Below, piece after piece: positions 8,217 to 32,000 of a stretch of 32,000 nt of DNA. The first letter of the stretch is position 1, and each line of letters begins with the position of its first letter. The translations under genes were made by a program, and so were the position numbers. Origin of the DNA: Oleispira antarctica RB-8 (lineage in GTDB: Bacteria > Pseudomonadota > Gammaproteobacteria > Pseudomonadales > Oceanobacteraceae); the NCBI GenBank assembly GCA_000967895.1, contig FO203512.1:1293350-1325349 (forward strand), given 5' to 3'. The notes below the pieces were generated by a model that made no database searches, was not told the origin of the DNA, and saw nothing but the letters and a program-made list of their open reading frames with translations.

Positions 8217-10349
8217 TTATAGAATTTCAATGTTTGATTGCTTACGGCAATAGAACTGATACATTCCCGCAAAAATACTCTCATCGTCCTGTTCCACTGT
8301 ATCCCAATTTTCTAATGTATTGTTACCTTTTAGCTTACCAATTGTGCTTTCGAAAGCTTGGTGAGCGCTGGTGGTCGGTAGCATGCCGATAAAATCGAGC
8401 TTATTATTCGCAAGTAAATTTGAGATTTTAGTGGCTGTAAATTGATGTTCTTGTGCGTGGAATATTAAGTCACGGCAATTACTCATACTGTAAAAATCAT
8501 TAGAATTAACAATTTCATTCCAGTCTCCAGGAATTTGATTCATTAATAACGCTTGGCGTAATAATCGTTGATCCAGTGCCTTACCTTCATTTTTCTCTGA
8601 TTGCAGGTTGCTCTGTGCAATGAGTTTTCTAAAAGTGATTACTTGCTTACGTGCTGCTTCGCTGTATAGAGCAATTTTCATTACCCCAGTAGGCGATAGA
8701 AGGTGTTGTAGGCTCTGCAAGCCTTGCTCGGGGTTTTCCATGTGGTGAAGCACCCCAGAGCATTCAATGACATCAAACAAGATTGGGAAGTCGCTGAATT
8801 CTAAAATATCCGCCTGTATAAACTGAATGTTTTCTACATTATATTTACTCGCTTGTTGTTTAGCATATGCTAAAGAACGACTACTTAAATCGATAGCAAT
8901 AATATTCAAATCATTGAAGTAGCTGGCTAAACGAATAGCTTGGCGGCCTGTGCCACAACCCGCGACGAGTACGTTTAATTTTTTCTTTCCTTGCCAGTGA
9001 CTTAAATTTAAATGTGGAAAATTCTTTAATAGTGCCTGTTGATAACTACTTGCAGTATTGAAACCAATATCTTTCCAGCGCGGGTAAGGGTTTTCTTCGT
9101 ATTGAGCTTGGACTTTTAGAGAGACAGAGTTTCTATTGCCTCTATTTTTATTGTTCAGGTTTTTATTAGAGCGATTGGTATGTGACCAGTAGGGCAATTT
9201 TTTAGCCAGTTGAATTTCTTTATCACGATTGTTAATTGCGTAATCAATGATGTCGGCTAAATAACTGTTTTTTAATGCCTGTGTGACGTGCTTAGACGCT
9301 AATATTTCAGCGAGTTTTGTCTGAGATAAATCTTTGTATTGTGCCAAGATAAGAATCGCAGGAGCTATATCATCAAGCTTCCATTCAGTTTGTTCGGTTA
9401 CTTGCAGTAATAGTGTTTCTAAGCCAGAAATTATTTCTTGTTCGTTTTGGGTTACTGGCCAAACGTATTCATTTAATTGAGCTTGAACGGCCATGTCGTG
9501 CGCCAGCTCTAAATGAATGCTGGGGATGGTCATGTCTTGAACGGTATTAAATAACAAGGTTTGCCTAAGGCTAATAAATAAACGTTCTAATAAAGCATCG
9601 CAAAAATGGAAACGTTTTAAGCTATTTAATAATAACAGATCGCTCGCAATTTGATCAAACTCAAGTGGCGTGCTGGCTTCATTAATTTTAAGTTTATGAT
9701 GCAGCAGTGTCGTAATCAGATTTCTTAATAGTGAATGATCAACGTTTTCAAAATTTAGGTAGCGTAGAACGTTTGCTTCTAATTCTGGAGAATAAAAATC
9801 AGCATTAATATGTGAGGCCGATTCAAATAACTTATTCCTAATGTGTGGGTCGTTTTCTTGCGTCTTGATTAATTCTTGATACAGCTGAAATGCTTCAACG
9901 TATTTGCCTTGTTCTAAATAAGTATAAGCCAGAGATGAAGCTGAACGCGTTGCCACCTTGGATATTTTTAATGACGCGCTAAAATGTTTTTCAGCTAGGG
10001 TCAGTTGCCCTAAAGCCAAGGCAATATGGCCAGCACTGTACAGTGCGGTAGAGCTATCGGGTTTTGTGCTTAGAGCGCGATCAATAATGCTTTGCGCTTT
10101 GTGCGGATTACCCACGAATAATTCAATACGTGCATATAAGTTAAGCCCTTTAATGCCGCTAGGATTAATATCAAGGGCTTGCTTAACCTTGTACAAGGCA
10201 GTCTCTAATAAGCCCTCGTTGATATCGGTGGCATGTTCAGCAGATTGCAGCTTGGCGAAGTCACGACTCGCCTCTTGTACCAACAAGGTATAAGAGTCGA
10301 GATCAATACGACGGGTCGTTTTTGTATTAGAGGCATGTAAAAGGTTCAT
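8217..10349 (-). CDS. TPR-repeat protein fused to a class I SAM-dependent methyltransferase (710 aa), function unknown
   Basis: The N-terminal third has TPR-like repeats (..ALYKVKQALDINPSGIKGLNLYARIELFVGNPHKAQSIIDRAL..; ..LAYTYLEQGKYVEAFQLYQELIK..). The C-terminal part has methyltransferase motifs: LNVLVAGCGTGRQAI (motif I), IIAIDLS, IQFIQADILEF, FDVIECSGVLHHM. It is the only minus-strand gene in the window. Confidence 0.85.
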   Translation of the reverse strand: MNLLHASNTKTTRRIDLDSYTLLVQEASRDFAKLQSAEHATDINEGLLETALYKVKQALDINPSGIKGLNLYARIELFVGNPHKAQSIIDRALSTKPDSSTALYSAGHIALALGQLTLAEKHFSASLKISKVATRSASSLAYTYLEQGKYVEAFQLYQELIKTQENDPHIRNKLFESASHINADFYSPELEANVLRYLNFENVDHSLLRNLITTLLHHKLKINEASTPLEFDQIASDLLLLNSLKRFHFCDALLERLFISLRQTLLFNTVQDMTIPSIHLELAHDMAVQAQLNEYVWPVTQNEQEIISGLETLLLQVTEQTEWKLDDIAPAILILAQYKDLSQTKLAEILASKHVTQALKNSYLADIIDYAINNRDKEIQLAKKLPYWSHTNRSNKNLNNKNRGNRNSVSLKVQAQYEENPYPRWKDIGFNTASSYQQALLKNFPHLNLSHWQGKKKLNVLVAGCGTGRQAIRLASYFNDLNIIAIDLSSRSLAYAKQQASKYNVENIQFIQADILEFSDFPILFDVIECSGVLHHMENPEQGLQSLQHLLSPTGVMKIALYSEAARKQVITFRKLIAQSNLQSEKNEGKALDQRLLRQALLMNQIPGDWNEIVNSNDFYSMSNCRDLIFHAQEHQFTATKISNLLANNKLDFIGMLPTTSAHQAFESTIGKLKGNNTLENWDTVEQDDESIFAGMYQFYCRKQSNIEIL

Positions 10350-15911: not shown

Positions 15912-15935
15912 GAATAAAAGGTCGAGGTGGTGGTT

Positions 15936-16538
15936 ATGGTTAATCGTGCGGATATCAACTCTGTTTTATTACAGATGCGTCAAGTACGTCAGCAAATGCA
16001 AACCACTGATCCAGCGTCGACTGTTGGCATGCAAAATACGATACAAAATCAGTTGCAAAGCCCCAATCAAAATTCTGCCGTCGGGGCACCACAAAACAGT
16101 TTTGCGGCGCAATTACAGCAGCAAAGAAGTCAGCTTGATCCTGCTGCTATGACTTCTCCTTCACCGTCTAATATGATGGCTTCGAACGTTAATCCTTCTA
16201 CCATGACCCCGTCGCAGTTTCGCAATGAATTAACTCAGCAAGATTTGATGAATCAAACTGCTGCGTTAGATACTCGTCCGGGCAATCAGATGAACTTTTC
16301 GTCGTCTGCTGCGAATCCTAGTATCGGCGAAATGATGGGCAATGCGATTAACCAAGTTAACGCTACTCAAAAACACGCGGGTAGCATGAGTACGCGTTAT
16401 ACCCAGGGTGATCCAAATATCGACTTACCCGAAGTGATGGTGGCGATGCAAAAATCCAGTGTTTCTTTTCAAGCAATGTCGCAGGTACGCAATAAGTTAT
16501 TAGAAGCGTATAAAGACATTATGAACATGCCAGTATAG
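15936..16538 (+). CDS. fliE: Flagellar rod adaptor FliE, about twice the normal length (200 aa from ATG 15936; the ORF opens at GTG 15927)
   Basis: The C terminus GDPNIDLPEVMVAMQKSSVSFQAMSQVRNKLLEAYKDIMNMPV and SIGEMMGNAINQVNATQK are canonical FliE. ATG 15936 is about 8 nt from the RBS GAGGTGG. A Q/N/S/P/M-rich segment of about 105 aa lies between the N-terminal helix and the conserved core. Confidence 0.9.
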   Translation: MVNRADINSVLLQMRQVRQQMQTTDPASTVGMQNTIQNQLQSPNQNSAVGAPQNSFAAQLQQQRSQLDPAAMTSPSPSNMMASNVNPSTMTPSQFRNELTQQDLMNQTAALDTRPGNQMNFSSSAANPSIGEMMGNAINQVNATQKHAGSMSTRYTQGDPNIDLPEVMVAMQKSSVSFQAMSQVRNKLLEAYKDIMNMPV

Positions 16539-20391: not shown

Positions 20392-21737
20392 GTTTGAGCG
20401 ATCAAATTAGTAATATCAGTCTTGAAAAATTATCACTGCAAAAAAAAGCCAGCGGACGCTTAATCCGTATGGTGGGATTAACTCTAGAGGCTGAAGGCCT
20501 TGTTGTAAAAATTGGCGATCGTTGCATGGTTGAACGTCGTGATGATACCGATATTGAAGCCGAAGTGGTTGGCTTTGATGGCAGTCGTATATTTCTTATG
20601 CCGATTGAACAAGTTGATGGCTTGCAGGCTGGGACTAAAGTTAGCCCCCTGTCGGGCTCTAACGGCGTGCCAGTCGGCTTTCAATTGCTGGGTCGTGTAC
20701 TTGATGGTATTGGCCGACCTTTAGACGGTAAAGGCCCACTGCATGCCGAAGAAGGTTCATTGCAAGGCGAGCAGATTAATCCATTGCATCGAGATCCTAT
20801 TCGCACCACCTTAGATGTGGGCATACGTTCTATTAATGCGCTGATGACTGTGGGTCGTGGTCAGCGTTTAGGGCTATTTGCAGGCAGTGGCGTGGGTAAA
20901 AGTATGCTGCTGGGTATGATGACACGTTTTACCGAAGCGGATATTACTGTGGTAGGTTTAATTGGTGAGCGTGGCCGAGAAGTAAAAGAATTTATTGATG
21001 AAATTTTAGGTGAAGAAGGCATGGCGCGTTCGGTGGTGATTGCTTCTCCAGCTGACGATTCTCCCTTGATGCGTCTACGTGCTGCGATGTATTGCACATC
21101 GGTAGCCGAGTACTACCGTAAGCAAGGTAAAAACGTATTACTGCTTATGGATTCTTTAACCCGTTATGCCCAAGCCCAGCGAGAAATTGCATTGGCGGTT
21201 GGCGAACCTCCTGCAACCAAGGGTTATCCACCTTCGGTATTTACCAAAATTCCTAAGTTAGTAGAGCGCGCGGGTAATGGTGAAGCAGGTGGTGGTTCGA
21301 TCACCGCGTTTTATACGGTGTTAAGTGAAGGTGATGATTTACAAGATCCGGTGGCCGATGCCAGTCGTGCTATTTTGGATGGCCACATTGTATTATCGCG
21401 AAAATTAGCCGATGAAGGACATTACCCTGCGATTGATATTGAAGCGTCGATCAGTCGTGCGATGCCGCAAATAGTATCAAAAGATTGGCTACGTAAAGCT
21501 CAAATGCTGCGTCAGTTGTATGCACACTACCAAGAGAATAAAGATTTAGTGAGTGTGGGGGCATATCAAGCAGGGACCGACCCTACGCTGGATTTGGCGT
21601 TGAATCGAATGCCCATGATTCAAAGCTTCTTGCAACAGGAATTAACTGAGTGCGTTAAAATTGACGCCAGTCTTGAGCAGTTAAATGTCATTCTTCCTGA
21701 TGTGCCGCAGGCGGATGTGAGTGGGCAAACTGTATGA
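20388..21737 (+). CDS. fliI: Flagellum-specific type III export ATPase FliI
   Basis: Walker A GSGVGKS, Walker [10 protein letters not shown], and conserved ERAG...[21 protein letters not shown] overlaps with fliH (start) and fliJ (end). Confidence 0.97.
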
Positions 21738-22183
21738 GTAAGCAACGAGTTAAGCGTTTAGGCTTTGTATTAAAAATGGCGGCTGATAAAGAACAGCAAG
21801 ATTTAAAGGTATGGGGTCAATATCAGCAGAAGCTAGAGCAGGAAGTTGGCACGCTCACCCAACTTGAGCAATATATGACGGAATACCGTAGCAGTTTAAC
21901 CAGTCAGCATGCCGCACCTATTCAAGGTGGACAGATACAAAATACCATTGCTTTTATTGAACAAATTAAAGAGGCAAGTGGTCATCAGCAGCAGCAAATC
22001 GATCTGGTTCAGCAACAAGCCGAGGGTGCTAAGCGCGTCTATTTGGCGGCGCGCGCAAAGGCTGAAGCCTTGCGTAAGCTGATTGAAAAATTAAATCTAC
22101 AAGCGTATGCACTGGAAGAAAAGCAAGATCAGAAAATGATGGATGAATTTGCTGCCCGCAGTGCTCGTAACCGTCAGTTATAG
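21734..22183 (+). CDS. fliJ: Flagellar export protein FliJ
   Basis: 149-aa coiled-coil protein ([45 protein letters not shown]...). It is translationally coupled to fliI in the conserved position. Confidence 0.85.
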
Positions 22184-22305
22184 TTTTAGAACTCGTCTTT
22201 ATTAAATTCCTATATTCACAATCCTTTCTTTATATTCCAATCAACATTAGCAGCTTTCCAATTGCCGTCTATTCTTAAAGTAAATGAAAATAGGAATGGA
22301 ATGAC

Positions 22306-22599
22306 ATGTCTGAAGGGCATCAAGTTGAATGCGGTGAGCGAATGACCATCGAAAAGGTCGAGAGTTTGTATAGCCAGTTAGAATCAGCGTTGTTAGAGCA
22401 CGGTAAAATTGAGCTTATTGCTGATCGTGTTCAGCAGTGCGATACCGCGTCACTTCAGTTAATCGTAAACCTTCTTAAAGCATCAAAACAGCAAGGTCAT
22501 AGTGTGATATGGATTAAACCTTCGCAGGCTATTATCAATGTGGCTGAGCTGTTGGGCTTAATTGAACCGCTAGAGCTGACACAACATATTGTGCGGTAG
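22306..22599 (+). CDS. Small STAS-domain protein (97 aa), first gene of the chemosensory block
   Basis: IELIADRVQQCDTASLQLIVNLLKASKQQGHSVIWIKPSQAIINVAELLGLIEPLEL has the beta-alpha pattern of STAS / anti-sigma-antagonist-like (MlaB-like) proteins. It has D-T-A-S instead of the canonical DSSGLG. Confidence 0.7.
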   Translation: MSEGHQVECGERMTIEKVESLYSQLESALLEHGKIELIADRVQQCDTASLQLIVNLLKASKQQGHSVIWIKPSQAIINVAELLGLIEPLELTQHIVR

Positions 22600-22625
22600 C
22601 AATTTATTCAGAAGCAATTTATTCA
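22598..22625 (+). repeat. Direct repeat AGCAATTTATTCA x2 at a 15-bp period, between the STAS gene and cheY
   Basis: Identical 13-mers at 22598-22610 and 22613-22625. The first overlaps the STAS stop codon. Confidence 0.8.
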
Positions 22626-22646
22626 CAAGATTGAGGGAGTATGCCA

Positions 22647-23009
22647 ATGGCAACCATTTTGGCGGTAGACGATTCTGCATCAATGCGACAAATGGTCACG
22701 TTCACGTTAAAAGGTGCAGGCTATGATGTTCAGGAAGCTTGTGATGGCAGTGAAGCTTTAAACATCGCTAAAACGCAAAAATTTGATTTGGTCTTGTCGG
22801 ATGTGAATATGCCCGTTATGGATGGTATTCAATTGGTTACAGAGCTACGCACACTGCCTGAGTACAAGTTTGTGCCGATTCTTATGCTAACAACAGAGTC
22901 TTCTGGTGATACAAAAATGGCGGGTAAAAAAGCAGGTGCGACGGGCTGGATTGTTAAGCCATTTAATCCAGATCAGCTATTAAATACCATTAAGAAAGTA
23001 TTAGGTTAA
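22647..23009 (+). CDS. cheY: Chemotaxis response regulator CheY (the ORF also opens at ATG 22641)
   Basis: ILAVDDSASMRQMV...LVLSDVNMPVMDG...ILMLTTES...GATGWIVKPF is a single-domain CheY. ATG 22647 is 8 nt from the RBS GAGGGA; ATG 22641 is only 2 nt from it. Confidence 0.93.
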   Translation: MATILAVDDSASMRQMVTFTLKGAGYDVQEACDGSEALNIAKTQKFDLVLSDVNMPVMDGIQLVTELRTLPEYKFVPILMLTTESSGDTKMAGKKAGATGWIVKPFNPDQLLNTIKKVLG

Positions 23010-23014
23010 TTATT

Positions 23015-25135
23015 ATGAGTATTGATCTCTCGCAATTTCATCAGGTTTTCTTTGAAGAAAGTTTTGAAGGCTTGGATATTATGGAGTCCAGTTTATTAGC
23101 ACTGGATTTAGCGGACGTTGATGCTGAAACTATTAATACTATTTTTCGTGCGGCGCATTCAATTAAGGGAGGCGCGGGCACTTTTGGCTTTATGCAAATA
23201 TCCGGTTTTACTCATGTACTGGAAACATTATTAGATGAAATTCGAGGGGGGGCACGGGAAATAGAGCAGGAACATGTTGATATTTTTTTGCAATGCGTTG
23301 ATTGCTTGCGAGGCTTGATGAGTGATCTGCAAGCAGGCTCCGAGCCTGAGATGACTCAAGCTAATGAACTGAAAAGTAAGTTTGAGATTATTTTAGCCGG
23401 AGAGGCTGTCTGTGTTGATAGTGAGGCCGCGACCGGATCGGCGATAGAAAACCAAAGCTTTGATTCAGACCCAGCGTCAGGTTCTGACAGTCGTAAGAAA
23501 GGTTGGAAAATTGAGTTTATTCCCTGTGAAGATGTTTTATGCACCGGTAATGAACCTTATAGAATGTTTCGTGAGCTAAAGGATTTAGCCGAAGCGGAAG
23601 CGGGCAGTCTTGATGTTATTCCTCATTTAGAGGCATTACCTGAATTCTCTGGGATGCACCCAGAGATGTGCTATCTCTCTTGGACTGTATTTGTGCGTGC
23701 CGATGTAGAATTGGCTGACATTGAAGAAATATTTGAATGGGTTGTAGACGATTGCGAAATTCGCTATGAACGCCTTTCAGACACAGAAGTGGTTGAAGCA
23801 TCGGTTGCTGTTGAATCAAAAGTTGAAAACTCTGCCGTCGAAGAGTCAATCGCCGTTGAAGAAACGGTAGAAGAAACGATAGAAAAAACGGTGGCGATTG
23901 CAGAAGCACCATCCCCTAAAGCAGCCAATAAAACAGTAGAAAATACCTCTATACGCGTCTCCATAGATAAGATTGATGGCTTGATCAATATGGTGGGTGA
24001 GTTAGTTATAACTCAATCCATGCTCGGTCAGTTGGGCCAAGAATTTGATATGAGTCGAATCCAACGTTTACAAGAAGGCTTGTCGCAGCTTGAGCAAAAT
24101 ACTCGCGAGCTGCAAGAAAGTGTGATGAAAATTCGCATGCTGCCAATCAGTTTTGCGTTCAGTCGTTTTCCTCGCCTGGTTCATGACTTGAGTAAACAGC
24201 TTGAGAAAGAAGTTGAGCTGGTAATGATTGGCGAAAATACCGAGTTGGATAAAACGGTGATGGAGAAAATTGGCGATCCTCTGGTTCACCTTGTGCGCAA
24301 CTCCCTTGATCATGGCTTGGAGTGCCCACAACAACGGCTTGAAAATGGTAAGTCCAGTATCGGTACTATTACGCTAAACGCCTATCATCATGGTGGTTCT
24401 ATTGTTATTGAAGTGAAAGATGATGGTGCGGGTTTAAACAAAGATAGAATTCGCAATAAAGCGATTGAAAAAGGATTGATTGCTGAAGATGAACATCTGA
24501 CTGATGGTCAGATTTACGATCTTATTTTTCAGCCAGGATTTTCAACCGCCGATGTAGTGAGCGATGTCTCTGGCCGAGGTGTGGGAATGGATGTGGTGCG
24601 CCGAAATATTGCAGAGCTTAATGGCTCTATTGATGTTTCGTCAACCCCAGGAGAAGGCTCAGTTTTCTCAATTAGACTGCCACTTACGTTAGCAATTCTT
24701 GATGGTCAGTTGGTTAAAGTGGGCGAAGAAATCTATATTTTCCCCTTGGTCTCTATTGTGGAATCTATTCAGCTAGAAAAATCGATGTTGAATAATATTA
24801 CCGGTAATCAGTTTGTGATGCAGCTGCGTAATGATTTTGTTCCTATTGTTTGCTTGCAAGATATTTTTAATATTAAGGCAGAAAAGAAAGATCTTGAAGG
24901 CGCGATGCTGGTGGTTGTAGAGGGTGATAATGGCAAGGTAGGTATTGTCGTTGATGAACTGTTAGGCCAGCAACAAGTCGTGATTAAAAGCCTCGAGAAA
25001 AACTACCAAAAAGTCGATTCGATTTCCGGTGCCACAATTTTAGGGGATGGTACTGTTGCCTTAATTGTGGATATCTCGGGTTTAAATAATAAGTCGCCAG
25101 ATAAAAAATCTGACAATCAAACTCAAGCTGCTTAA
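23015..25135 (+). CDS. cheA: Chemotaxis histidine kinase CheA
   Basis: Hpt FRAAHSIKGGAGTFGF; dimerisation/H-box-like IRVSIDKIDGLINMVGELVI; HATPase DPLVHLVRNSLDHG, DDGAGLN, GRGVGMD; C-terminal CheW-like domain. Confidence 0.96.
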   Translation: MSIDLSQFHQVFFEESFEGLDIMESSLLALDLADVDAETINTIFRAAHSIKGGAGTFGFMQISGFTHVLETLLDEIRGGAREIEQEHVDIFLQCVDCLRGLMSDLQAGSEPEMTQANELKSKFEIILAGEAVCVDSEAATGSAIENQSFDSDPASGSDSRKKGWKIEFIPCEDVLCTGNEPYRMFRELKDLAEAEAGSLDVIPHLEALPEFSGMHPEMCYLSWTVFVRADVELADIEEIFEWVVDDCEIRYERLSDTEVVEASVAVESKVENSAVEESIAVEETVEETIEKTVAIAEAPSPKAANKTVENTSIRVSIDKIDGLINMVGELVITQSMLGQLGQEFDMSRIQRLQEGLSQLEQNTRELQESVMKIRMLPISFAFSRFPRLVHDLSKQLEKEVELVMIGENTELDKTVMEKIGDPLVHLVRNSLDHGLECPQQRLENGKSSIGTITLNAYHHGGSIVIEVKDDGAGLNKDRIRNKAIEKGLIAEDEHLTDGQIYDLIFQPGFSTADVVSDVSGRGVGMDVVRRNIAELNGSIDVSSTPGEGSVFSIRLPLTLAILDGQLVKVGEEIYIFPLVSIVESIQLEKSMLNNITGNQFVMQLRNDFVPIVCLQDIFNIKAEKKDLEGAMLVVVEGDNGKVGIVVDELLGQQQVVIKSLEKNYQKVDSISGATILGDGTVALIVDISGLNNKSPDKKSDNQTQAA

Positions 25136-25146
25136 GGGAGTAGTGC

Positions 25147-25695
25147 ATGATAAATGCAGCTCAGAAAAACAAGAATGATAAAGGCTCTAGTATTAACACT
25201 TCAGGTACGAGTGATGATGAACAGCAATATTTAACTTTCATTATGGCAGGAGAAGAATACGGCGTTGATATTTTAGCGGTTCAAGAGATACGAGGCTGGG
25301 AACCAACCACGGTTATTCCAAATGCACCCAGTTATATCAAAGGTGTTATTAATCTACGAGGAACCATCGTTCCCATTATGGATTTGCGAAGTCGATTTAA
25401 TTTAGAGCGTATTGAATACAGCCCAGTGACCGTGGTTATTATTCTTAAGGTCGAAACCGAGCGTGGCGAGCGGGTTATGGGAATTGTTGTTGATGCAGTA
25501 TCCGACGTTCACTCGATCAGTGATTCTGATACCCGTAATAGTCCCGATTTAATAGAAGATTTAAATACCGAGTTTATTCGCAGCTTGGTTTCGGTAGATG
25601 ACAGTATGATTATTTTATTGGACGTACAGCGACTATTAACGATTGATAAGCAATTAGTAGATTTAGCCGCTGATGCAATAGTCGATACCCAATAG
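25147..25695 (+). CDS. cheW: Chemotaxis coupling protein CheW
   Basis: YLTFIMAGEEYGVDILAVQEIRGW...PNAPSYIKGVINLRGTIVPIMDLR is the CheW signature. An RBS AAGGGAG lies upstream. Confidence 0.95.
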   Translation: MINAAQKNKNDKGSSINTSGTSDDEQQYLTFIMAGEEYGVDILAVQEIRGWEPTTVIPNAPSYIKGVINLRGTIVPIMDLRSRFNLERIEYSPVTVVIILKVETERGERVMGIVVDAVSDVHSISDSDTRNSPDLIEDLNTEFIRSLVSVDDSMIILLDVQRLLTIDKQLVDLAADAIVDTQ

Positions 25696-25731
25696 GGCAC
25701 TTAAGAGCTTTATGATAATAGGATAAATATC

Positions 25732-28281
25732 ATGTCTGAAGAGCAAGATTCAACACATTGGAAAACGCCAGCACTAACGGTTATTCCAGCCGCATTCGCA
25801 TTTTTGTATTTGGTGGTTACGGCCGCTAACGTCGGTTTGTCTGCCGTAGTCGCTGTAATAGGCGTTGTTCTATCTATCGTTTTGGGCTGGGTGTTGTTAT
25901 CCAAGCATGAGGTGCAAGATGGTAATGCCATTGAAACTGAGCGGTTAGTGAAAGCGCTGAATGTGTGTAATACCAATGTGATGTTAGCAGATGCTAATAA
26001 TGAGATTTGTTATACCAATGAATCCGTCAATATTATGATGAAAAACGCCGAAGCGGCTATTCGCAGTGAACTTCCTAATTTTAATAGTGCCAGTTTAATT
26101 GGCACTAATATGGATGTTTTTCATAAAAATCCTGCTCATCAAAAAAGTATGGTTGCGAGCTTAAATAAAACATATAAAACACACATTGTGGTGGGTGGTC
26201 GTACTCTTGGCTTAATTGCTACGCCTATTTTTTCAGATGACGAATTACGTTTGGGAACGGTGGTTGAGTGGTCTGATAAAACAGACGAATTAGCGAAAGA
26301 ACATGATGAGCAGCAAGTAGTAAAAGAAAATATTCGTATTCGAAAAGCGTTAGATGTTTGTAATACCAATGTGATGATGGCGGATGAAAATCTAAACATT
26401 GTTTACATGAATAAAGCCGTAAGTGACATGATGATTGAGGCCGAAACCGATTTAAAAGTGGCGCTACCCCATTTTAAGGCTCATGAATTGATGGGGGTTA
26501 ATATTGATGTTTTCCATAAAGATCCATCGCATCAGCGTGGTATGTTAGAAAAGTTAACGCATGTATATAAAACCACGATCGAAGTAGGAATACGTACGTT
26601 TAGTTTAATCGCAACGCCTGTATTTGAAGAAGGCCAACGTCTAGGCACTGTCGTCGAATGGCTTGATAAAACAGAAACTCTTGCGCAAGAAATTGCAGAA
26701 AAGATTGTGGCTGATACCAATGCTCGAGTAAAACAGGCGCTGGATTCTGTTTCAGGTAATACCATGATCGCCGATAATGACTTTAACATTATTTATATGA
26801 ATGCCGCGGTGCAGGGCATGATGAGTCATGCTGAAGGAGACATACAGAAAGATTTACCTCATTTTGATGCGAATAATCTGGTCGGTAAAAATATTGATAC
26901 CTTCCATAAAAACCCTGCTCATCAGCGCGATTTAGTCGCTAAAATGACAGGGACTTATAAAGCACACATCGTTTTGGGGGGGCGAACGTTTGTATTGATT
27001 GCTAATCCGATTGAAAATGAACAAGGCGAACGCATAGGTGCTGTAGTGGAATGGCTGGATCGTACCGACGAAGTGGCTGTTGAAAAAGAAGTCGATGGTT
27101 TGGTGCAAGCGGCGATTAATGGCGATTTATCGCATCGTTTAGAAACCAGCAATAAAGAAGGTTTTTTCTTAAGTCTGGCCGATGGACTTAATAACTTAGT
27201 CGGCATCGCTGAAGACGTCGTTAACGATACCGCACGAGTATTGGATGCTTTAGCTAATGGGCGATTAACAGAAACCATTACGGCTGATTATCAAGGCTCA
27301 TTTGGCAAGCTCAAACAAGATTCTAATGCGACGGTAGTCAAGCTCACCGAGATTATAACGAATATTCGTGAGTCGGCCTCGACGGTCTCGATAGGTGCCA
27401 ATGAGATTGCTCAGGGTAATGCTGATTTGAGTCAACGGACTGAATCACAAGCGTCAAACCTTGAAGAAACAGCGTCTAGTATGGAAGAGATGACCAGTGC
27501 GGTGAAGCAGACCAGTGAGAATTCTATACATGCAACTGAGTTGGCTGTTTCAGCCAGTAAGCAAGCGGCACAAGGTGGGGAAGTTGTGAGCCGTGCAGTG
27601 ATGGCAATGGACGAGATTAACCAAGCCAGTAATAAAATTGCTGATATTATTGGAGTCATTGATGAGATCGCCTTTCAAACAAATTTATTAGCCTTAAACG
27701 CCGCGGTAGAAGCAGCACGAGCAGGAGAGCAGGGCAGAGGCTTTGCCGTTGTGGCCGGGGAAGTACGAAGTCTCGCTCAGCGTTCGGCGGGTGCCGCGAA
27801 AGAAATTAAAGAACTGATTCGTGACAGTGTGGATAAGGTCAGCGCGGGAACTAACTTGGTTAACGAGTCAGGGAAAACATTAAAAGATATTGTATCCTCG
27901 GTGAAGCGAGTAACCGATATGATTGAAGAAATCAGTATTGCAGCCCACGAGCAGTCATCGGGAATAGAGCAGGTCAATAGTGCAATTTCGCAAATGGATG
28001 AAATGACACAACAAAATGCGGCGCTAGTAGAAGAGGCAACAGCTGCGGGTGAAGCTATGGCAGAGCAATCCCGAGGCATGATGAACCTGATGGATTTCTT
28101 TACCTTGAACAATTCAGCGACCAGCATGGAAGGTTATGTTAACCGCCCCTCTATTTCTGCACCGACCAATTCTACTCATTTTAATCCCGTTAGCCAGAAA
28201 CCTGTCACACAAAAGTCTTCTCACTCCCGTGAAGGCGCTATTGTGAGTGATTCAGCCGATGATGAATGGCAAGAGTTTTAA
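25732..28281 (+). CDS. Methyl-accepting chemotaxis protein: N-terminal membrane hairpin, three tandem Aer2-type PAS domains, HAMP-like region, signalling domain, C-terminal EWQEF pentapeptide
   Basis: Hydrophobic aa 13-56. A PAS unit occurs three times (..CNTNVM.AD....I.Y.N......M...E..I...LP.F....L.G.N.D.FHK.P.HQ........YK..I..G.RT..LIA.P......R.G.VVEW.D.T). The MCP hairpin tip reads [42 protein letters not shown]. Confidence 0.95.
25942..27069 (+). repeat. Triplicated PAS-coding unit (aa 71-185, 201-315, 331-446)
   Basis: Three collinear units of about 115 aa at 25942-26286, 26332-26676 and 26722-27069. Each has FHK[ND]P[AS]HQ and VVEW[SL]D[KR]T. Confidence 0.85.
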
Positions 28282-28338
28282 AACTTGATTATGCCTAATG
28301 CTCATGCAGCTGTCGATTACAGGGAAAAGGAATTCCCT

Positions 28339-29142
28339 ATGACAAGCAAAGACTTCGAGCGGATCGCAGATTTAGCAGGCCGTTATACCGGAATTGTATT
28401 AGGCGAGCATAAACACGATATGGTTTATGGCCGAATCGCTCGTCGAGTTCGCAAGTTGAATCTATCAAGTTTCACGGCTTATTTGGATTTTTTAGAAGCC
28501 AACCTTCAGCAAGAATTATCGAATTTTATTAATGTTATTACGACAAACTTAACCTCATTTTTTAGAGAAAATCACCATTTTGATTTTCTTTATAAGACGG
28601 TATTAGCAGAGGTTAAAAGAAAGAATCATGCGACGAAGCGCGTGCGAATTTGGTCTGCGGGTTGCTCGACAGGGATGGAGCCCTATTCAATAGCGATGAC
28701 GTTGATTAAGTTTGGCATACCAGCTGATTGGGATGTGAAAATATTAGCAACGGACTTAGATTCTGATGTGCTAGATAAAGCACGAACTGCTGTGTACTCA
28801 GTCAATGAGGTTGATGGTTTAGCAGAAGGGGTTGTTAAAAATTATTTTCAACGTGGCGGCACAGGAAAAGAAGTAAGAGTAAAAGAAAGGGTGAGTCAGT
28901 TTGTTCATTTTAAGCGTTTAAATCTGCTAGAAAACTGGCCAATGAAAGGGCCGTTTGACTTTATATTTTGTCGAAATGTTGTGATCTATTTTGACAAGCC
29001 AACCCAGAAAATATTATTTGATCGTTATGCTGAGCTGTTATCGGTAGGAGGCTATCTATTTATTGGTCATTCTGAAAATTTACACGGCATCAGTGATCGC
29101 TTTGAAAATTTAGGAAATACTGTTTATAGGAAGATACGCTAA
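28339..29142 (+). CDS. cheR: Chemotaxis protein methyltransferase CheR (the ORF also opens at TTG 28285 and ATG 28291)
   Basis: DFERIADLAGRYTGIVLGEHKHDMVYGRIARRVRKLNL (N-domain), TNLTSFFRE, IWSAGCSTGMEPYSIAM (SAM site), IFCRNVVIYFD. ATG 28339 has the best RBS (AAGGAA, 7-nt spacer). Confidence 0.93.
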   Translation: MTSKDFERIADLAGRYTGIVLGEHKHDMVYGRIARRVRKLNLSSFTAYLDFLEANLQQELSNFINVITTNLTSFFRENHHFDFLYKTVLAEVKRKNHATKRVRIWSAGCSTGMEPYSIAMTLIKFGIPADWDVKILATDLDSDVLDKARTAVYSVNEVDGLAEGVVKNYFQRGGTGKEVRVKERVSQFVHFKRLNLLENWPMKGPFDFIFCRNVVIYFDKPTQKILFDRYAELLSVGGYLFIGHSENLHGISDRFENLGNTVYRKIR

Positions 29143-29807
29143 TGACCGCGTTGAATAATAACGTCTCTCAGCCTGAACAGCCTCCTTTAAGTCAAGATTT
29201 TACACATATAAACCGTTATTGGGACAATCTTCATCAAGTCTGGGCGGCTAAAATATTGCCGGGTGAATTGTATGTGTCTACCCATGGGGAAATGATTTCA
29301 ACTGTATTAGGATCTTGTATTTCGGTGTGCATTCGCGACAAGAAAAAAGGGATTGGAGGCATGAATCATTTTATGCTGCCGCAAAATAATGAATTTTCTA
29401 GTGAGAGTTGGGGGACTAATCCGATTACTTCAGCGTCTCGTTACGGTAATTGGGCGATGGAGTATTTGATCAATGCTATTTTAAAATGCGGTGGTGAAAA
29501 GAAAAACTTTGAAGTGAAAGTTTTTGGTGGTGGTCAGATGATGGCAAGAATGACTGATATTGGCCAAAAAAATATCCTATTTGTGTATCAATATTTAGCA
29601 GAAGAAAAACTGAGGATTGAGGCCAGTGATGTGGGTGATATTTATGCTCGAAAAGTTTTGTATTTTCCTGATACGGGTTGTGTAAAAGTTAGGCGTATAA
29701 AACATATTAAAAACGATACAATTATTCGTCGTGAAACTGAATACGAACAGCATGTGAAAGTTGTGGATGAAGCTAAGCCTGATGCGAGTAATGTCGAGCT
29801 ATTTTAG
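29142..29807 (+). CDS. cheD: Chemoreceptor glutamine deamidase CheD
   Basis: ILPGELYVSTHGEMISTVLGSCISVCIRD...GGMNHFMLP contains the CheD catalytic Cys and His context. The start overlaps the cheR stop (TAATG). Confidence 0.9.
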   Translation: MTALNNNVSQPEQPPLSQDFTHINRYWDNLHQVWAAKILPGELYVSTHGEMISTVLGSCISVCIRDKKKGIGGMNHFMLPQNNEFSSESWGTNPITSASRYGNWAMEYLINAILKCGGEKKNFEVKVFGGGQMMARMTDIGQKNILFVYQYLAEEKLRIEASDVGDIYARKVLYFPDTGCVKVRRIKHIKNDTIIRRETEYEQHVKVVDEAKPDASNVELF

Positions 29808-29816
29808 GGAGGGGTC

Positions 29817-30848
29817 ATGGTTAAAATTCGTGTATTGGTAATTGATGATTCTGCACTCATTAGACAAATGCTAACAGAAATATTAAACAGTCGAGATGAT
29901 ATAGACGTTGTAGGCACTGCTGAAGATCCTTTTATTGCTAGAGAAAAAATAAAGCAGTTATCGCCCGATGTATTAACTCTAGACATTGAAATGCCGAGAA
30001 TGACGGGGTTGCAGTTTTTAAAAAACCTAATGCGCTTGCGCCCTATGCCTGTGATTATGGTTTCTACATTAACTGAACGTGGTGCGCCGGAAACGTTAGA
30101 GGCTTTAGAGCTGGGTGCTGTCGATTATATTTGCAAGCCTAAAGCGAAGACGGAAACCAAGCTTAGAATATTTGCCGATGATCTCGTAAGTAAAGTAAGA
30201 ATGGCATCAACCGCTCGGGTGCGGCCATTTGAACAGAATAAAACCCGTGTTCCTGTCGCTCGATCAAGTGCCACGTTTTCTAAAGTGATTGCTGTGGGTG
30301 CTTCTACTGGAGGAACGGAAGCTATTAAAGAACTGCTCACGTCGGTTCCTGAAAATTGCCCGCCCATTTTAATTACTCAGCACATTCCTAAAGTATTCAG
30401 TACGTCTTTTGCTGAACGGCTTGATCGCTGTTTGGCGATGGAAGTATTTGAAGCCCAAGAAGGTATGATAATTCGTTCTGGCTGTGTGTATATAGCACCT
30501 GGCGACTATCACTTAACGATTGCCAAGTCGGGAACTAAGATGGTTTGTCGTATTATTCAAACGGAAAAGGTAAACCGTCACCGACCTGCTGTTGATGTAA
30601 TGTTCAACTCAATATTGGAAGCTTATGGCCCCAACGTTGTGGCCGTTATGTTAACGGGCATGGGGAATGATGGCGCTCAGGGAATGCTTAAATTAAAGCA
30701 AGCGGGCGCGGTGACTTACGCGCAAGATGAGGCGACGTCGGTTGTCTGGGGGATGCCTCAGGCGGCATACAATATCGGCGCTGTCGATGAATTGCTTCCT
30801 CTGCAAAAAATTACTGAGAGAATGCTTTGGTCAGCGCAAAAAAAATGA
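29817..30848 (+). CDS. cheB: Chemotaxis response regulator protein-glutamate methylesterase CheB
   Basis: Receiver VLVIDDSALIRQ...LTLDIEMPRMTG. Esterase motifs AVGASTGGTEA, ITQHIPKVFS, MLTGMGNDGA. An RBS GGGAGGGG lies upstream. Confidence 0.96.
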   Translation: MVKIRVLVIDDSALIRQMLTEILNSRDDIDVVGTAEDPFIAREKIKQLSPDVLTLDIEMPRMTGLQFLKNLMRLRPMPVIMVSTLTERGAPETLEALELGAVDYICKPKAKTETKLRIFADDLVSKVRMASTARVRPFEQNKTRVPVARSSATFSKVIAVGASTGGTEAIKELLTSVPENCPPILITQHIPKVFSTSFAERLDRCLAMEVFEAQEGMIIRSGCVYIAPGDYHLTIAKSGTKMVCRIIQTEKVNRHRPAVDVMFNSILEAYGPNVVAVMLTGMGNDGAQGMLKLKQAGAVTYAQDEATSVVWGMPQAAYNIGAVDELLPLQKITERMLWSAQKK

Positions 30849-30917
30849 TCATTTAAAACGCTGGGTTAAGGCTGAATATGGTCTAAAGTATAAATAGGTT
30901 ATTAAGGGAGTTAAGAA

Positions 30918-31223
30918 ATGGGTGTTCAGTCGAATATTGATAGTAGTGGAAAAGAGCTAACGATTAAGATTGGTGGCCGCTTTGATTTTAGTGCGCATCA
31001 AGAATTCCGCGATGCTTACGAAAATATTTCAACGGCTGTTAGTCGCTATGTTGTCGATTTAGGCAATACATCGTACTTGGATAGTTCGGCATTGGGGATG
31101 TTGTTATTACTTCGAGATCATGCAGGTGGAGATAATGCCAGCATTAAAATAGTTAAGTGTAATGAAGACGTACGAAAAATATTGACGATTTCTAATTTTG
31201 AACAGCTGTTTACAATTCAATAG
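30918..31223 (+). CDS. STAS-domain anti-sigma-factor antagonist-like protein with a canonical phospho-serine motif
   Basis: VVDLGNTSYLDSSALGMLLLLRD carries the D-S-S-x-L-G motif of SpoIIAA/RsbV-type antagonists. The protein is 101 aa. An RBS AAGGGAG lies upstream. Confidence 0.88.
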   Translation: MGVQSNIDSSGKELTIKIGGRFDFSAHQEFRDAYENISTAVSRYVVDLGNTSYLDSSALGMLLLLRDHAGGDNASIKIVKCNEDVRKILTISNFEQLFTIQ

Positions 31224-31243
31224 CGTAAGTGCGGGTGGCTAAC

Positions 31244-32000
31244 ATGAAAATCCTTATTGCTGACGATAATGCCTCAGATCGATTATTATTGAGTAAAATC
31301 ATCAGCAAACAGGGTCATGATGTTGTTGAGGCAGAAGATGGTAAGCATGCTATCGATTGTTACCTTGAGGACGCGCCTGACATTATTTTAATGGATGTCA
31401 TGATGCCGGTACTTGATGGTAAGGCTGCGGCAAAAGAAATTAAGCGCATTGCAGGTGAAGATTTAATTCCTATTATATTTTTAACTTCACTTATTGATGC
31501 TCAAAGTCTTGCGGATTGTTTAGAGTCTGGTGGTGATGATTTTTTAACCAAACCTTATAACCATATTATTCTTAAAGCTAAAATAGATGCATTTGTTCGT
31601 ATGAAAAACATGCATGGTATTTTACAGAAGCAGCGAGATACTATTGCTGCGAATAATCAGCACATGTTGCAGGAGCAGCATGTTGCAAAAGCGGTATTTG
31701 ATAATGTTGCGCACTCAGGTTGTTTAGATGCCGCTAATATTAAATACATGCTGTCTCCTTTAGCGGTATTTAATGGTGATGTTTTATTAGCCGCCCGTAA
31801 ACCTTCTGGTGGTATGCATGTACTTTTGGGCGACTTCACGGGCCATGGGTTGCCAGCGGCGATTGGGGCAATGCCAGTAGCTGAAATATTTTATGGTATG
31901 ACCGCAAAGGGTTTTGGGTTGCGTAATATTCTGCGAGAAATTAATACCAAGCTTAAGAATATTTTACCGGTAGGCTTTTTCTGCTGCGCAGCGGTTGTCG
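31244..32000 (+). CDS. Response-regulator receiver fused to a PP2C/SpoIIE-type serine phosphatase; the 3' end lies beyond the window
   Basis: My own translation from ATG 31244 (RBS GGGTGG): MKILIADDNASDRLLLSKII...IILMDVMMPVLDG...IFLTS...TKPY (receiver), then ...VFNGDVLLAARKPSGGMHVLLGDFTGHGLPAAIGAMPVAEIFY (start of the SpoIIE/PP2C domain). The frame is open to base 32000. It is absent from the ORF track because it has no stop in the window. Confidence 0.88.
   Translation, partial: MKILIADDNASDRLLLSKIISKQGHDVVEAEDGKHAIDCYLEDAPDIILMDVMMPVLDGKAAAKEIKRIAGEDLIPIIFLTSLIDAQSLADCLESGGDDFLTKPYNHIILKAKIDAFVRMKNMHGILQKQRDTIAANNQHMLQEQHVAKAVFDNVAHSGCLDAANIKYMLSPLAVFNGDVLLAARKPSGGMHVLLGDFTGHGLPAAIGAMPVAEIFYGMTAKGFGLRNILREINTKLKNILPVGFFCCAAVV

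Follow-up and report, generated by a model that had tools for sequence, protein, structure and literature searches.

An F7 chemosensory block and an HsbA-HsbR-HptB-type partner switch between fliJ and fliK of Oleispira antarctica suggest a single ancestral locus

Stage-1 F7 chemosensory clusters are defined by a set gene order: an anti-sigma antagonist gene, then cheY, cheA, cheW, aer2, cheR, cheD, and cheB, and then another anti-sigma antagonist gene and a serine phosphatase gene (Ortega et al. 2020, PMC7184735). Cluster III of Vibrio cholerae and the cluster of Methylomicrobium alcaliphilum are of this kind; in the published description their function is unknown and they are stress- or RpoS-linked (PMC7184735). 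The F7 clusters of V. cholerae and Pseudomonas aeruginosa are RpoS-dependent. The receptor Aer2 is a heme-based O2 sensor (PMC10107281). Here we describe a locus of this type from Oleispira antarctica RB-8. It lies in a stretch of 32,000 nucleotides (the window), where a block of chemosensory (che) genes follows the flagellar gene fliJ and is itself followed by genes related to the HsbA-HsbR-HptB partner switch of Pseudomonas. Our reading, to which we give a probability of roughly 0.6, is that the F7 che block and HsbA-HsbR-HptB make up one ancestral locus, with the F7 signal converging on HsbR.

The closest described relative of the switch is the HptB-HsbR-HsbA system of Pseudomonas (PA3345-3347). 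In the Pseudomonas and Shewanella homologues, HptB phosphorylates the receiver domain of HsbR, and HsbR acts on HsbA either as a kinase or as a phosphatase; both HsbA and HsbR bind FlgM, RpoS, and diguanylate cyclases, varying by species. In P. putida, hsbA-hsbR-hptB is found between fliJ and fliK and comes first in an operon made up of hsbAR-hptB-fliKLMNOPQR-flhB (bioRxiv 10.1101/2021.08.29.457346), and the hsbA promoter depends on RpoS and (p)ppGpp (bioRxiv 10.1101/2024.11.25.625174). The components are those of the Gram-positive switches (RsbU/RsbV/RsbW and SpoIIE/SpoIIAA/SpoIIAB), namely a PP2C phosphatase, a GHKL serine kinase/anti-sigma domain, and a phosphorylatable STAS antagonist. The logic is shared as well; the differences are that HsbR unites phosphatase, kinase, and receiver in a single protein and that a His-Asp phosphorelay provides the input.

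Chemosensory clusters and partner switches have been linked before. The che1 cluster of Shewanella oneidensis (stage-2 F7) is linked to a receiver-PP2C-kinase/anti-sigma protein (CrsR) and a STAS antagonist (CrsA) that form an RpoS partner switch, and it has been proposed that Che1 feeds this switch (PMC9855816, PMC6482189). Unlike in Oleispira, crsA-crsR and mcpA are upstream of cheY, the cluster is outside the flagellar cluster, and no Hpt protein is described. Similarly, che2 of V. vulnificus is described with RsbU/RsbV (PMC10107281).

In the window, ten genes follow fliJ, all on the + strand. A first-pass annotation had named them and given their order and coordinates, and the open reading frames (ORFs), together with strong Pfam support, bear this out:

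21734-22183, + strand: fliJ, which closes the flagellar fliE-J block and borders the junction upstream (Pfam FliJ, E = 3.6e-21)
22306-22599, + strand: STAS1, 97 amino acids (aa), an MlaB-like STAS_2 protein (Pfam STAS_2, E = 3.6e-10)
22641-23009, + strand: cheY, a single-domain receiver of the F7 type (Pfam Response_reg, E = 1.1e-29)
23015-25135, + strand: cheA (Pfam P1 Hpt, dimerisation, HATPase, and CheW-like domains)
25147-25695, + strand: cheW, present in a single copy (Pfam CheW, E = 8.6e-37)
25732-28281, + strand: Aer2-like methyl-accepting chemotaxis protein (MCP), 849 aa (Pfam and PDB matches; UniRef100_R4YQ71 / CCK75398.1)
28285-29142, + strand: cheR, methyltransferase (Pfam CheR, E = 9.2e-63, and CheR_N)
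29142-29807, + strand: cheD, deamidase (Pfam CheD, E = 1.2e-28; NCBIfam PRK13487, 241 bits, above the cut-off of 223)
29817-30848, + strand: cheB, methylesterase with a receiver domain (Pfam CheB_methylest, E = 5.4e-65, and Response_reg; R4YL51)
30918-31223, + strand: STAS2, the hsbA orthologue, a SpoIIAA-type anti-sigma-factor antagonist (Pfam STAS and STAS_2)
31244-32000, + strand: the hsbR orthologue, a receiver-PP2C/SpoIIE protein cut off by the end of the window, with residues 1-252 inside it (Pfam)

The che genes match the published stage-1 F7 clusters in most respects. A STAS gene precedes cheY, a STAS gene and a serine phosphatase gene follow the che genes, the core order is cheY-cheA-cheW-aer2-cheR-cheD-cheB, CheD is present, and neither CheZ nor CheC is encoded in the block (ORFs and Pfam, window). 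The receptor has a gap-free alignment to Tsr of E. coli, which places it in heptad class 36H, the F7 receptor class. In Thalassolituus oleivorans, from the sister genus, the cheY of the orthologous cluster is labelled F7 in supplementary trees (Ortega et al. 2020, PMC7184735). The assignment to the class of P. aeruginosa Che2 and V. cholerae cluster III, made in the first-pass annotation, is supported. The published clusters have two cheW-like genes and an mcpA-like receptor gene after cheB, whereas Oleispira has one cheW and its 69-bp gap between cheB and STAS2 contains no MCP gene, which is why we file the locus as a reduced variant; two cheW genes are found in two relatives (L067 and L089). 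It also differs from the published clusters (PMC7184735) in that its Aer2 combines three PAS domains with a hydrophobic hairpin at the N-terminus, in that an Hpt gene, unmentioned in the published description, comes after the phosphatase gene, and in that the block lies between fliJ and fliK. Overall, the domain content and gene order give good support to a reduced stage-1-like F7 cluster of the published type. The frame of STAS and PP2C genes, which the first-pass annotation had put forward as the novelty, already serves in the literature to mark out stage-1 F7 clusters (Ortega et al. 2020, PMC7184735).

Judging from its domains and motifs, the MCP is an Aer2-type PAS-heme receptor, with heme binding predicted. 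It consists of an N-terminal hydrophobic hairpin, three PAS-heme domains, a di-HAMP unit (Pfam HAMP_2), a 36H-type kinase-control module, and a C-terminal EWQEF pentapeptide. Its PDB matches include P. aeruginosa Aer2 (3VOL, E = 1.1e-69; 4HI4, E = 2e-39), and PAS3 aligns to both without gaps. The heme-ligand motif FHK[ND]P and the Trp/DxT motif VVEW.D[KR]T both recur in each of the three PAS repeats, so that the Eeta-His ligand, the Ibeta-Trp, and the DxT of Aer2 receptors are all present; there is no periplasmic domain, and a HAMP pair precedes the 36H module. From the end of the HAMP region to the C-terminus, the kinase-control module aligns gap-free to Tsr (E = 6e-81). The score against the NCBIfam Vibrio Aer2 equivalog is 706 bits, under the cut-off of 1200. 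Aer2 of V. vulnificus, which is also encoded in an F7 cluster, has the same tri-PAS arrangement with Eeta-His and Ibeta-Trp, the di-HAMP unit, the 36H module, and an xWxxF pentapeptide (EWEEF, versus EWQEF in Oleispira), and it is predicted to be soluble (PMC10107281). The Oleispira protein instead opens with a hydrophobic stretch of about 45 residues (residues ~13-57; 25768-25902) that is probably a membrane hairpin. A membrane-anchored Aer2 may bear on how F7 arrays are attached to the membrane, which published work leaves unexplained.

The remaining proteins complete the array and adaptation set (Aer2, CheW, CheA, CheR, CheB, and CheD). CheA matches the E. coli-type model PRK10547 best in NCBIfam (612 bits, full length), and the top NCBIfam scores of both CheA and CheW are to E. 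coli (F7) models. Catalytic and phospho-acceptor motifs are intact throughout the locus: the HSIKG motif of CheA, the receiver Asp of CheY and HsbR, the DFTGHG motif and metal Asp of PP2C, the GHKL N and G boxes of HsbR, the His of Hpt, and Ser56 of HsbA. The window proteins are 59-79% identical to their Thalassolituus orthologues. CheY is the best-conserved protein of the block, with 72-94% identity across clades in which HsbR shows 47-78%, which hints at several constrained interaction surfaces.

Could this be a motor-control system, in which CheY binds FliM and steers the polar flagellum during aerotaxis? The block does sit between fliJ and fliK, and in hijack assays E. coli can carry out chemotaxis through Aer2 receptors. 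Furthermore, in O. antarctica proteomics the MCP (R4YQ71) shows a 3- to 10-fold increase at 4 C relative to 16 C, and Aer2 and motility proteins both rise at 4 C (PMC7318663; CheB R4YL51 was undetected). These points are set against several others. The block lacks CheZ; CheY reaches just 89 of the 189 bits that the E. coli CheY equivalog requires; and no sigma-54 or sigma-28 flagellar promoter precedes the block. In the published phylogeny, CheY proteins of stage-1 and stage-2 F7 systems fall outside the motor-controlling clade of F6 and F7 stage 5, and Aer2 systems have no direct effect on motility in the species tested. O. antarctica also has two further CheB genes (C00950 and C12450) and a CheZ elsewhere in the genome (PMC7318663), which is consistent with a separate F6 system. 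Control of the motor by this block is very improbable.

To the right of the window, we relied on a metagenome contig (L001) that aligns to 11,083 nt of the window at 99.37% identity, without gaps. It contains the full receiver-PP2C-kinase gene, an Hpt gene, and then fliK, fliL, fliM, fliN, fliOPQR, flhB, and flhA. The flagellar order (fliJ, then fliK) thus resumes about 10.3 kb later, and the intervening stretch is given as twelve genes, not ten. An extension of this kind had been suggested to see the rest of the phosphatase gene and whether fliK follows, and fliK does follow, after Hpt. The N-terminus of the L001 protein matches the window part at 251 of 252 residues. Full length, it is a 574-aa protein with Response_reg, SpoIIE/PP2C, and HATPase_c_2 domains (Pfam), where a receiver-PP2C phosphatase had been supposed, and the block continues past it. 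The Hpt protein has 114 aa and the phospho-His motif AHSFKG.

STAS2, the receiver-PP2C protein, and Hpt are, on sequence comparison, the orthologues of Pseudomonas HsbA, HsbR, and HptB. A search of 1.84 billion representative proteins with the full-length receiver-PP2C-kinase found Pseudomonas orthologues with 47-50% identity over the full length; the P. putida GM4FR protein encoded between fliJ and fliK is 47% identical from end to end. In an alignment of 27 diverse relatives, D51, DFTGHG, D319, D369/370, E445/N449, and DxGxG are invariant or nearly so, and the protein has the receiver, the PP2C domain, and the GHKL serine kinase/anti-sigma domain of HsbR, each with its catalytic residues. 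Relatives carry KEGG-type names such as “HptB-dependent ... response regulator.” The STAS2 motif YLDSSALGMLLLLRD (YLDSSALG) shows no variation across 88 of 88 loci, with P. putida HsbA among them, and it places Ser56 at the position of the phosphorylated S56 of that protein; the PDB relatives of STAS2 are TM1442 and SpoIIAA. In Hpt, AHSFKG is conserved across loci. The synteny also agrees: as in P. putida, the order is fliJ, hsbA-hsbR-hptB, fliK, except that the che block lies between fliJ and hsbA. In other words, Pseudomonas has the same STAS(Ser56), receiver-PP2C-kinase, and Hpt genes between fliJ and fliK, and a related hsbA promoter motif, but no che genes at the locus, while Oleispira has the F7 block and a second, unrelated STAS gene immediately upstream. 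In P. aeruginosa, the F7/Che2 cluster (PA0173-0180) lies away from the hsb locus. For Shewanella and Vibrio, which are absent among our best 80 loci and best 120 proteins, orthology to HsbR comes from the literature: S. oneidensis CrsR is 25.5% identical to HsbR (PMC6482189).

These orthologies bear on the view, taken in the first-pass annotation, that both STAS genes and the receiver-PP2C gene belong to a single che operon, with CheA directly phosphorylating the receiver-PP2C protein and the switch as its dedicated output. The gene order and tight spacing fit this view, stage-1 F7 clusters are defined with STAS and phosphatase genes, and the P1 domain of CheA is an Hpt domain that already serves two receivers, those of CheY and CheB. 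But a dedicated Hpt gene follows the receiver-PP2C gene in 80 of 80 loci, which weakens the case for CheA as the direct phosphodonor, and Pseudomonas HsbR is phosphorylated via HptB. Also, STAS2 has a separate promoter motif in front of it, and STAS2-HsbR-Hpt occurs without che genes in most relatives, with STAS1 alone being strictly che-linked. STAS2 and the receiver-PP2C gene are not a mere end of the che operon but HsbA and HsbR orthologues that many genera have without che genes. We consider a single operon with direct phosphotransfer from CheA unlikely. As for the idea that the output is a partner switch, the linkage of a switch to the pathway stands; the idea itself is not new, as it had been proposed for Shewanella Che1 (PMC9855816, PMC6482189).

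The distribution of the two parts bears on their history. From a genome scan with one genome per species, we used the best 80 of 578 relatives as loci and annotated them by phmmer with the window proteins as queries. STAS2, HsbR, and Hpt are encoded in that order in all 80. In about 50 of them, the genes run fliH-fliI-fliJ, STAS2-HsbR-Hpt, fliK-L-M-N, with no che genes; these loci include Pseudomonas, Cellvibrio, Marinobacter, Zooshikella, Reinekea, Saccharospirillum, Natronospirillum, and Gilvimarinus. Occurring so often without che genes, the module belongs to the fliJ-fliK gap independently of them. Immediately upstream of STAS2, 14 of the 80 loci have the full block from STAS1 and cheY to cheB, as do four more genomes that were looked up by protein. 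The block is found in Oleispira, Thalassolituus, Bacterioplanoides, Oceanobacter, Bacterioplanes sanyensis, and Litoribacillus, and also in one Saccharospirillaceae genome, one Oleiphilaceae metagenome-assembled genome (MAG), two Cellvibrionaceae MAGs, and an “Enterobacterales” MAG lineage. Wherever the flank extends so far, fliJ is immediately upstream of the che block (in L053, fliJ was recognised by Pfam). The exception is L089, in which a pseudouridine synthase gene is upstream and fliK still comes after Hpt.

A neighbor-joining (NJ) tree of HsbR follows taxonomy, and the che-bearing loci are scattered over at least four of its clades. For 17 che-containing loci, the trees of CheA+B+R+D and of HsbR+STAS2+Hpt have 12 of 14 splits in common, with a distance correlation of r = 0.96; these are NJ trees only, and MAG assemblies can be wrong. 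Whether the STAS and PP2C genes are co-inherited with the che genes, a check raised at the outset, thus has a divided answer: where the che block is present, it has co-diverged with STAS2-HsbR-Hpt, but the module persists without che in most relatives.

Some loci appear to be intermediates of decay. In an Oleispira MAG whose HsbR is 85% identical (L009:3729-4404), the che block is gone, and the 676-bp gap between fliJ and hsbA holds a frameshifted remnant of cheB residues 176-342 (76-78% identical). An Azotimanducaceae MAG (L021:8634-9029) has a lone full-length F7 cheY, 65% identical, with an in-frame stop. The complete genome of the gamma proteobacterium strain HdN1 (L090:7492-9494) has an intact F7 cheY (64%), cheD, and a 308-aa gene, with no cheA, cheW, aer2, cheR, or cheB at the junction. 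We considered whether the 308-aa protein, encoded between cheD and STAS2, is a decayed CheB and rejected this; the protein has just a faint MCPsignal match. The comparisons are most simply explained by a linkage of the che block to hsbA-hsbR-hptB that already existed in the common ancestor of several gammaproteobacterial lineages. The che genes would later have been lost or moved repeatedly, with the switch retained, in most lineages, Pseudomonas among them.

The transcription signals of the locus were also compared. Two features are of interest:

22247-22278, + strand: candidate promoter of the che block, with a -35 element TTAGCA (22247-22252), a 17-nt spacer, a -13 C (22269), a -10 element TATTCT (22270-22275), and then TAA
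30879-30895, + strand: a diverged copy, TGGTCTAAAGTATAAAT, of the putative hsbA promoter motif that relatives share upstream of STAS2/hsbA

The gap between fliJ and STAS1 is 122 bp long. It had been reported to have no terminator and no sigma-54 or sigma-28 promoter, and our searches agree: we found no terminator or hairpin-plus-T run in the gap (folding z-score 0.33), no Rfam match in the whole window, and no sigma-54 (TGGCAC-N5-TTGC) or sigma-28 (TAAAG-N-GCCGATAA) site in or beside the che block. A scan of the gap for sigma-70-type promoters gave no match either. As positive controls, sigma-54-like sites turned up before fleS (12968), fliE (15826, TGGCCCACAAGTTGCA), fliK (L001:12434), and fliL (L001:13837), and a sigma-28-like site before fliD (4008). 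These putative sites appear to outline the flagellar hierarchy around the che/hsb island. A -10 box had been pointed out at 22210-22216; the letters CTATATT are there, but they lie where the gap shows no conservation, even with another Oleispira genome. Across nine loci from five genera, the gaps are alignable in one block only (T[AG]GCAGCT...GCCGTCTAATCTTA), which has 14 invariant columns including C-TA..CTTA. The E. coli sigma-S extended -10 consensus is KCTAYRCTTAA, and the block at 22247-22278 resembles it; we infer that this block is a candidate sigma-S/sigma-70-type promoter of the che block. We also considered the element T[AG]GCAGC...TTGCC as a sigma-54 site and rejected it, because the GG-to-GC spacing is 3 nt too long and the GG is AG in seven of the nine loci. 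Some read-through from fliJ into the che block may occur.

In front of STAS2, the che-containing relatives carry TGTGCTAAAC/TCT, and Pseudomonas hsbA has GTGCTAAACCTT at the same distance, so this promoter motif is common to che-containing and che-less loci. The diverged copy in the window is, we infer, functional as an hsbA promoter. Judged by these motifs, there seem to be two transcription units of a stress type, one for the che block and one for the hsb module, between sigma-54 flagellar operons.

Several of these results weigh against our reading, and they favor a different explanation: two independent systems side by side, with CheY-F7 acting on some other target and HsbR fed only by hybrid kinases via HptB. 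First, the motif that hsbA keeps as its own implies that the che and hsb units can be expressed separately, and about 50 of the 80 loci have the switch without che genes. Second, the junction itself attracts genes. In P. putida, extra genes are found preferentially where hsbA adjoins fliJ (bioRxiv 10.1101/2021.08.29.457346), and Pseudomonas sp. PDM18 (L033:5547-9572) has about 4 kb of unrelated cargo there, encoding an APH(6) aminoglycoside kinase, DUF1345, a LysE exporter, an AraC regulator, and Gcw_chp, which illustrates an insertion hot spot. Third, congruent trees would also be expected from the vertical inheritance of two unrelated neighbors. Fourth, HptB has known donors outside the Che proteins: Pseudomonas HsbR works without che genes, with hybrid kinases feeding HptB, so che and hsb may be neighbors owing to common regulation or history, without sharing a phosphorelay. 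In the literature searched, we found no report of phosphotransfer from an F7 CheA or CheY to HptB, HsbR, or CrsR. Finally, the Hsb system of P. putida has no effect on FliA activity or swimming, and its targets differ among species. On the other side, the linkage of che genes to STAS2-HsbR-Hpt has been kept in at least four clades with congruent trees, and it persists in L089, which lacks fliJ upstream. Strain HdN1 still has an intact cheY and cheD beside the switch after loss of the array genes, and the literature describes linkage outside of flagellar clusters in Vibrio (RsbU/RsbV) and Shewanella (CrsR/CrsA). We take mere juxtaposition seriously but doubt it.

If the che block and the switch are instead one ancestral locus, as we favor, signaling might proceed as follows. 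Membrane-anchored Aer2, with its three PAS-heme domains, would sense O2 and, with CheW, control the autophosphorylation of CheA; CheR, CheB, and CheD would adapt the receptor through its EWQEF tether. Phosphorylated CheA would phosphorylate CheY-F7 and CheB, without acting on the motor, and the pathway would converge on the receiver of HsbR. Two routes are conceivable: a His-Asp-His-Asp relay from CheA through CheY-F7 and HptB to HsbR, or direct transfer from the P1 domain of CheA to HsbR. Phosphorylation of the receiver would switch HsbR between serine kinase and PP2C phosphatase activity on Ser56 of HsbA and possibly Thr47 of STAS1. The phosphorylation state of HsbA would then set its choice of partner (in Pseudomonas and Shewanella, FlgM/FliA, RpoS, or diguanylate cyclases), and the net effect would be to couple oxygen or stress status to sigma-factor availability and cyclic di-GMP. 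Between the two routes, we lean towards the relay because Hpt is always kept beside HsbR, because CheY-F7 is the most conserved protein of the block, and because HdN1 keeps cheY (with cheD) at the switch without cheA.

This reading can be extended to Pseudomonas, more tentatively. HptB-HsbR-HsbA of Pseudomonas would be the orphaned output branch of an ancestral stage-1 F7 (Aer2) system that headed the fliK operon, and where the locus is intact, as in Oleispira, an oxygen signal would pass from CheA through CheY-F7 and HptB to HsbR and on to HsbA (perhaps also to STAS1). We see this extension as possible but short of an even bet.

STAS1 occurs only in che-containing loci. A word-based search recovered it from the Oleispira clade only, at 60% identity or more, and the remoter homologues come from the annotation of the loci. 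A Thr or Ser is found at the phospho-site position (T47 in Oleispira) in 14 of 14 homologues. We asked if STAS1 is a duplicate of STAS2 and rejected this, as the two have no BLASTP similarity and belong to different STAS subfamilies. STAS1, which is MlaB-like, could be a second substrate of HsbR or a competitor.

Upstream of fliJ, the window contains a polar flagellar cluster (fliC, flaG, fliD, fliS, fleQ, fleS, fleR, fliE, fliF, fliG, fliH, and fliI). The flagellin FliC (877 aa, 763-3396) and the cap protein FliD (1318 aa, 4099-8055) are far above the usual length, or “giant” filament proteins, and their Pfam matches are confined to the terminal helical regions. Between fliD and fliS, on the - strand (8217-10349), is a gene for a 710-aa protein with tetratricopeptide repeats (TPR) and an S-adenosylmethionine (SAM)-methyltransferase domain, which may be a flagellin-modifying enzyme. 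The fliE ORF (15927-16538) would encode 203 aa; because the FliE domain spans only residues 123-203, the GTG at 15927 probably lies well upstream of the true start.

Much of what the locus contains has been published separately: the stage-1 F7 architecture, the proposal that a Che pathway feeds a partner switch, and the presence of hsbAR-hptB between fliJ and fliK. In the literature searched, we found no mention of Aer2 together with HptB or HsbR, and neither Hpt nor fliK has a match in the text and supplements of Ortega et al. 2020 (PMC7184735); a Halomonas chemosensory paper that was checked for a similar arrangement was not relevant. One point seems to be undescribed: the terminal STAS and phosphatase genes of the F7 cluster are orthologues of HsbA and HsbR and are always followed by HptB, and many different marine gammaproteobacteria have the intact F7-plus-Hsb locus at the head of their fliK operon.

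The output of ancestral F7/Che2-type systems is an acknowledged open question, as are the signals that drive HptB-HsbR-HsbA. The window and its relatives present the two systems as one conserved, co-diverging locus with decay intermediates, which makes a vague idea about Che and partner switches specific: it suggests a single ancestral F7-HptB locus in which F7 signals enter HsbR, possibly via CheY and HptB. We see this as a useful comparative lead on the output of F7 systems and not as a new kind of system. If HptB-HsbR-HsbA is indeed an orphaned branch of such a locus, then the output of the non-motor F7/Che2 systems would have been found, and Che2 and HptB signaling would still cross-talk in Pseudomonas.

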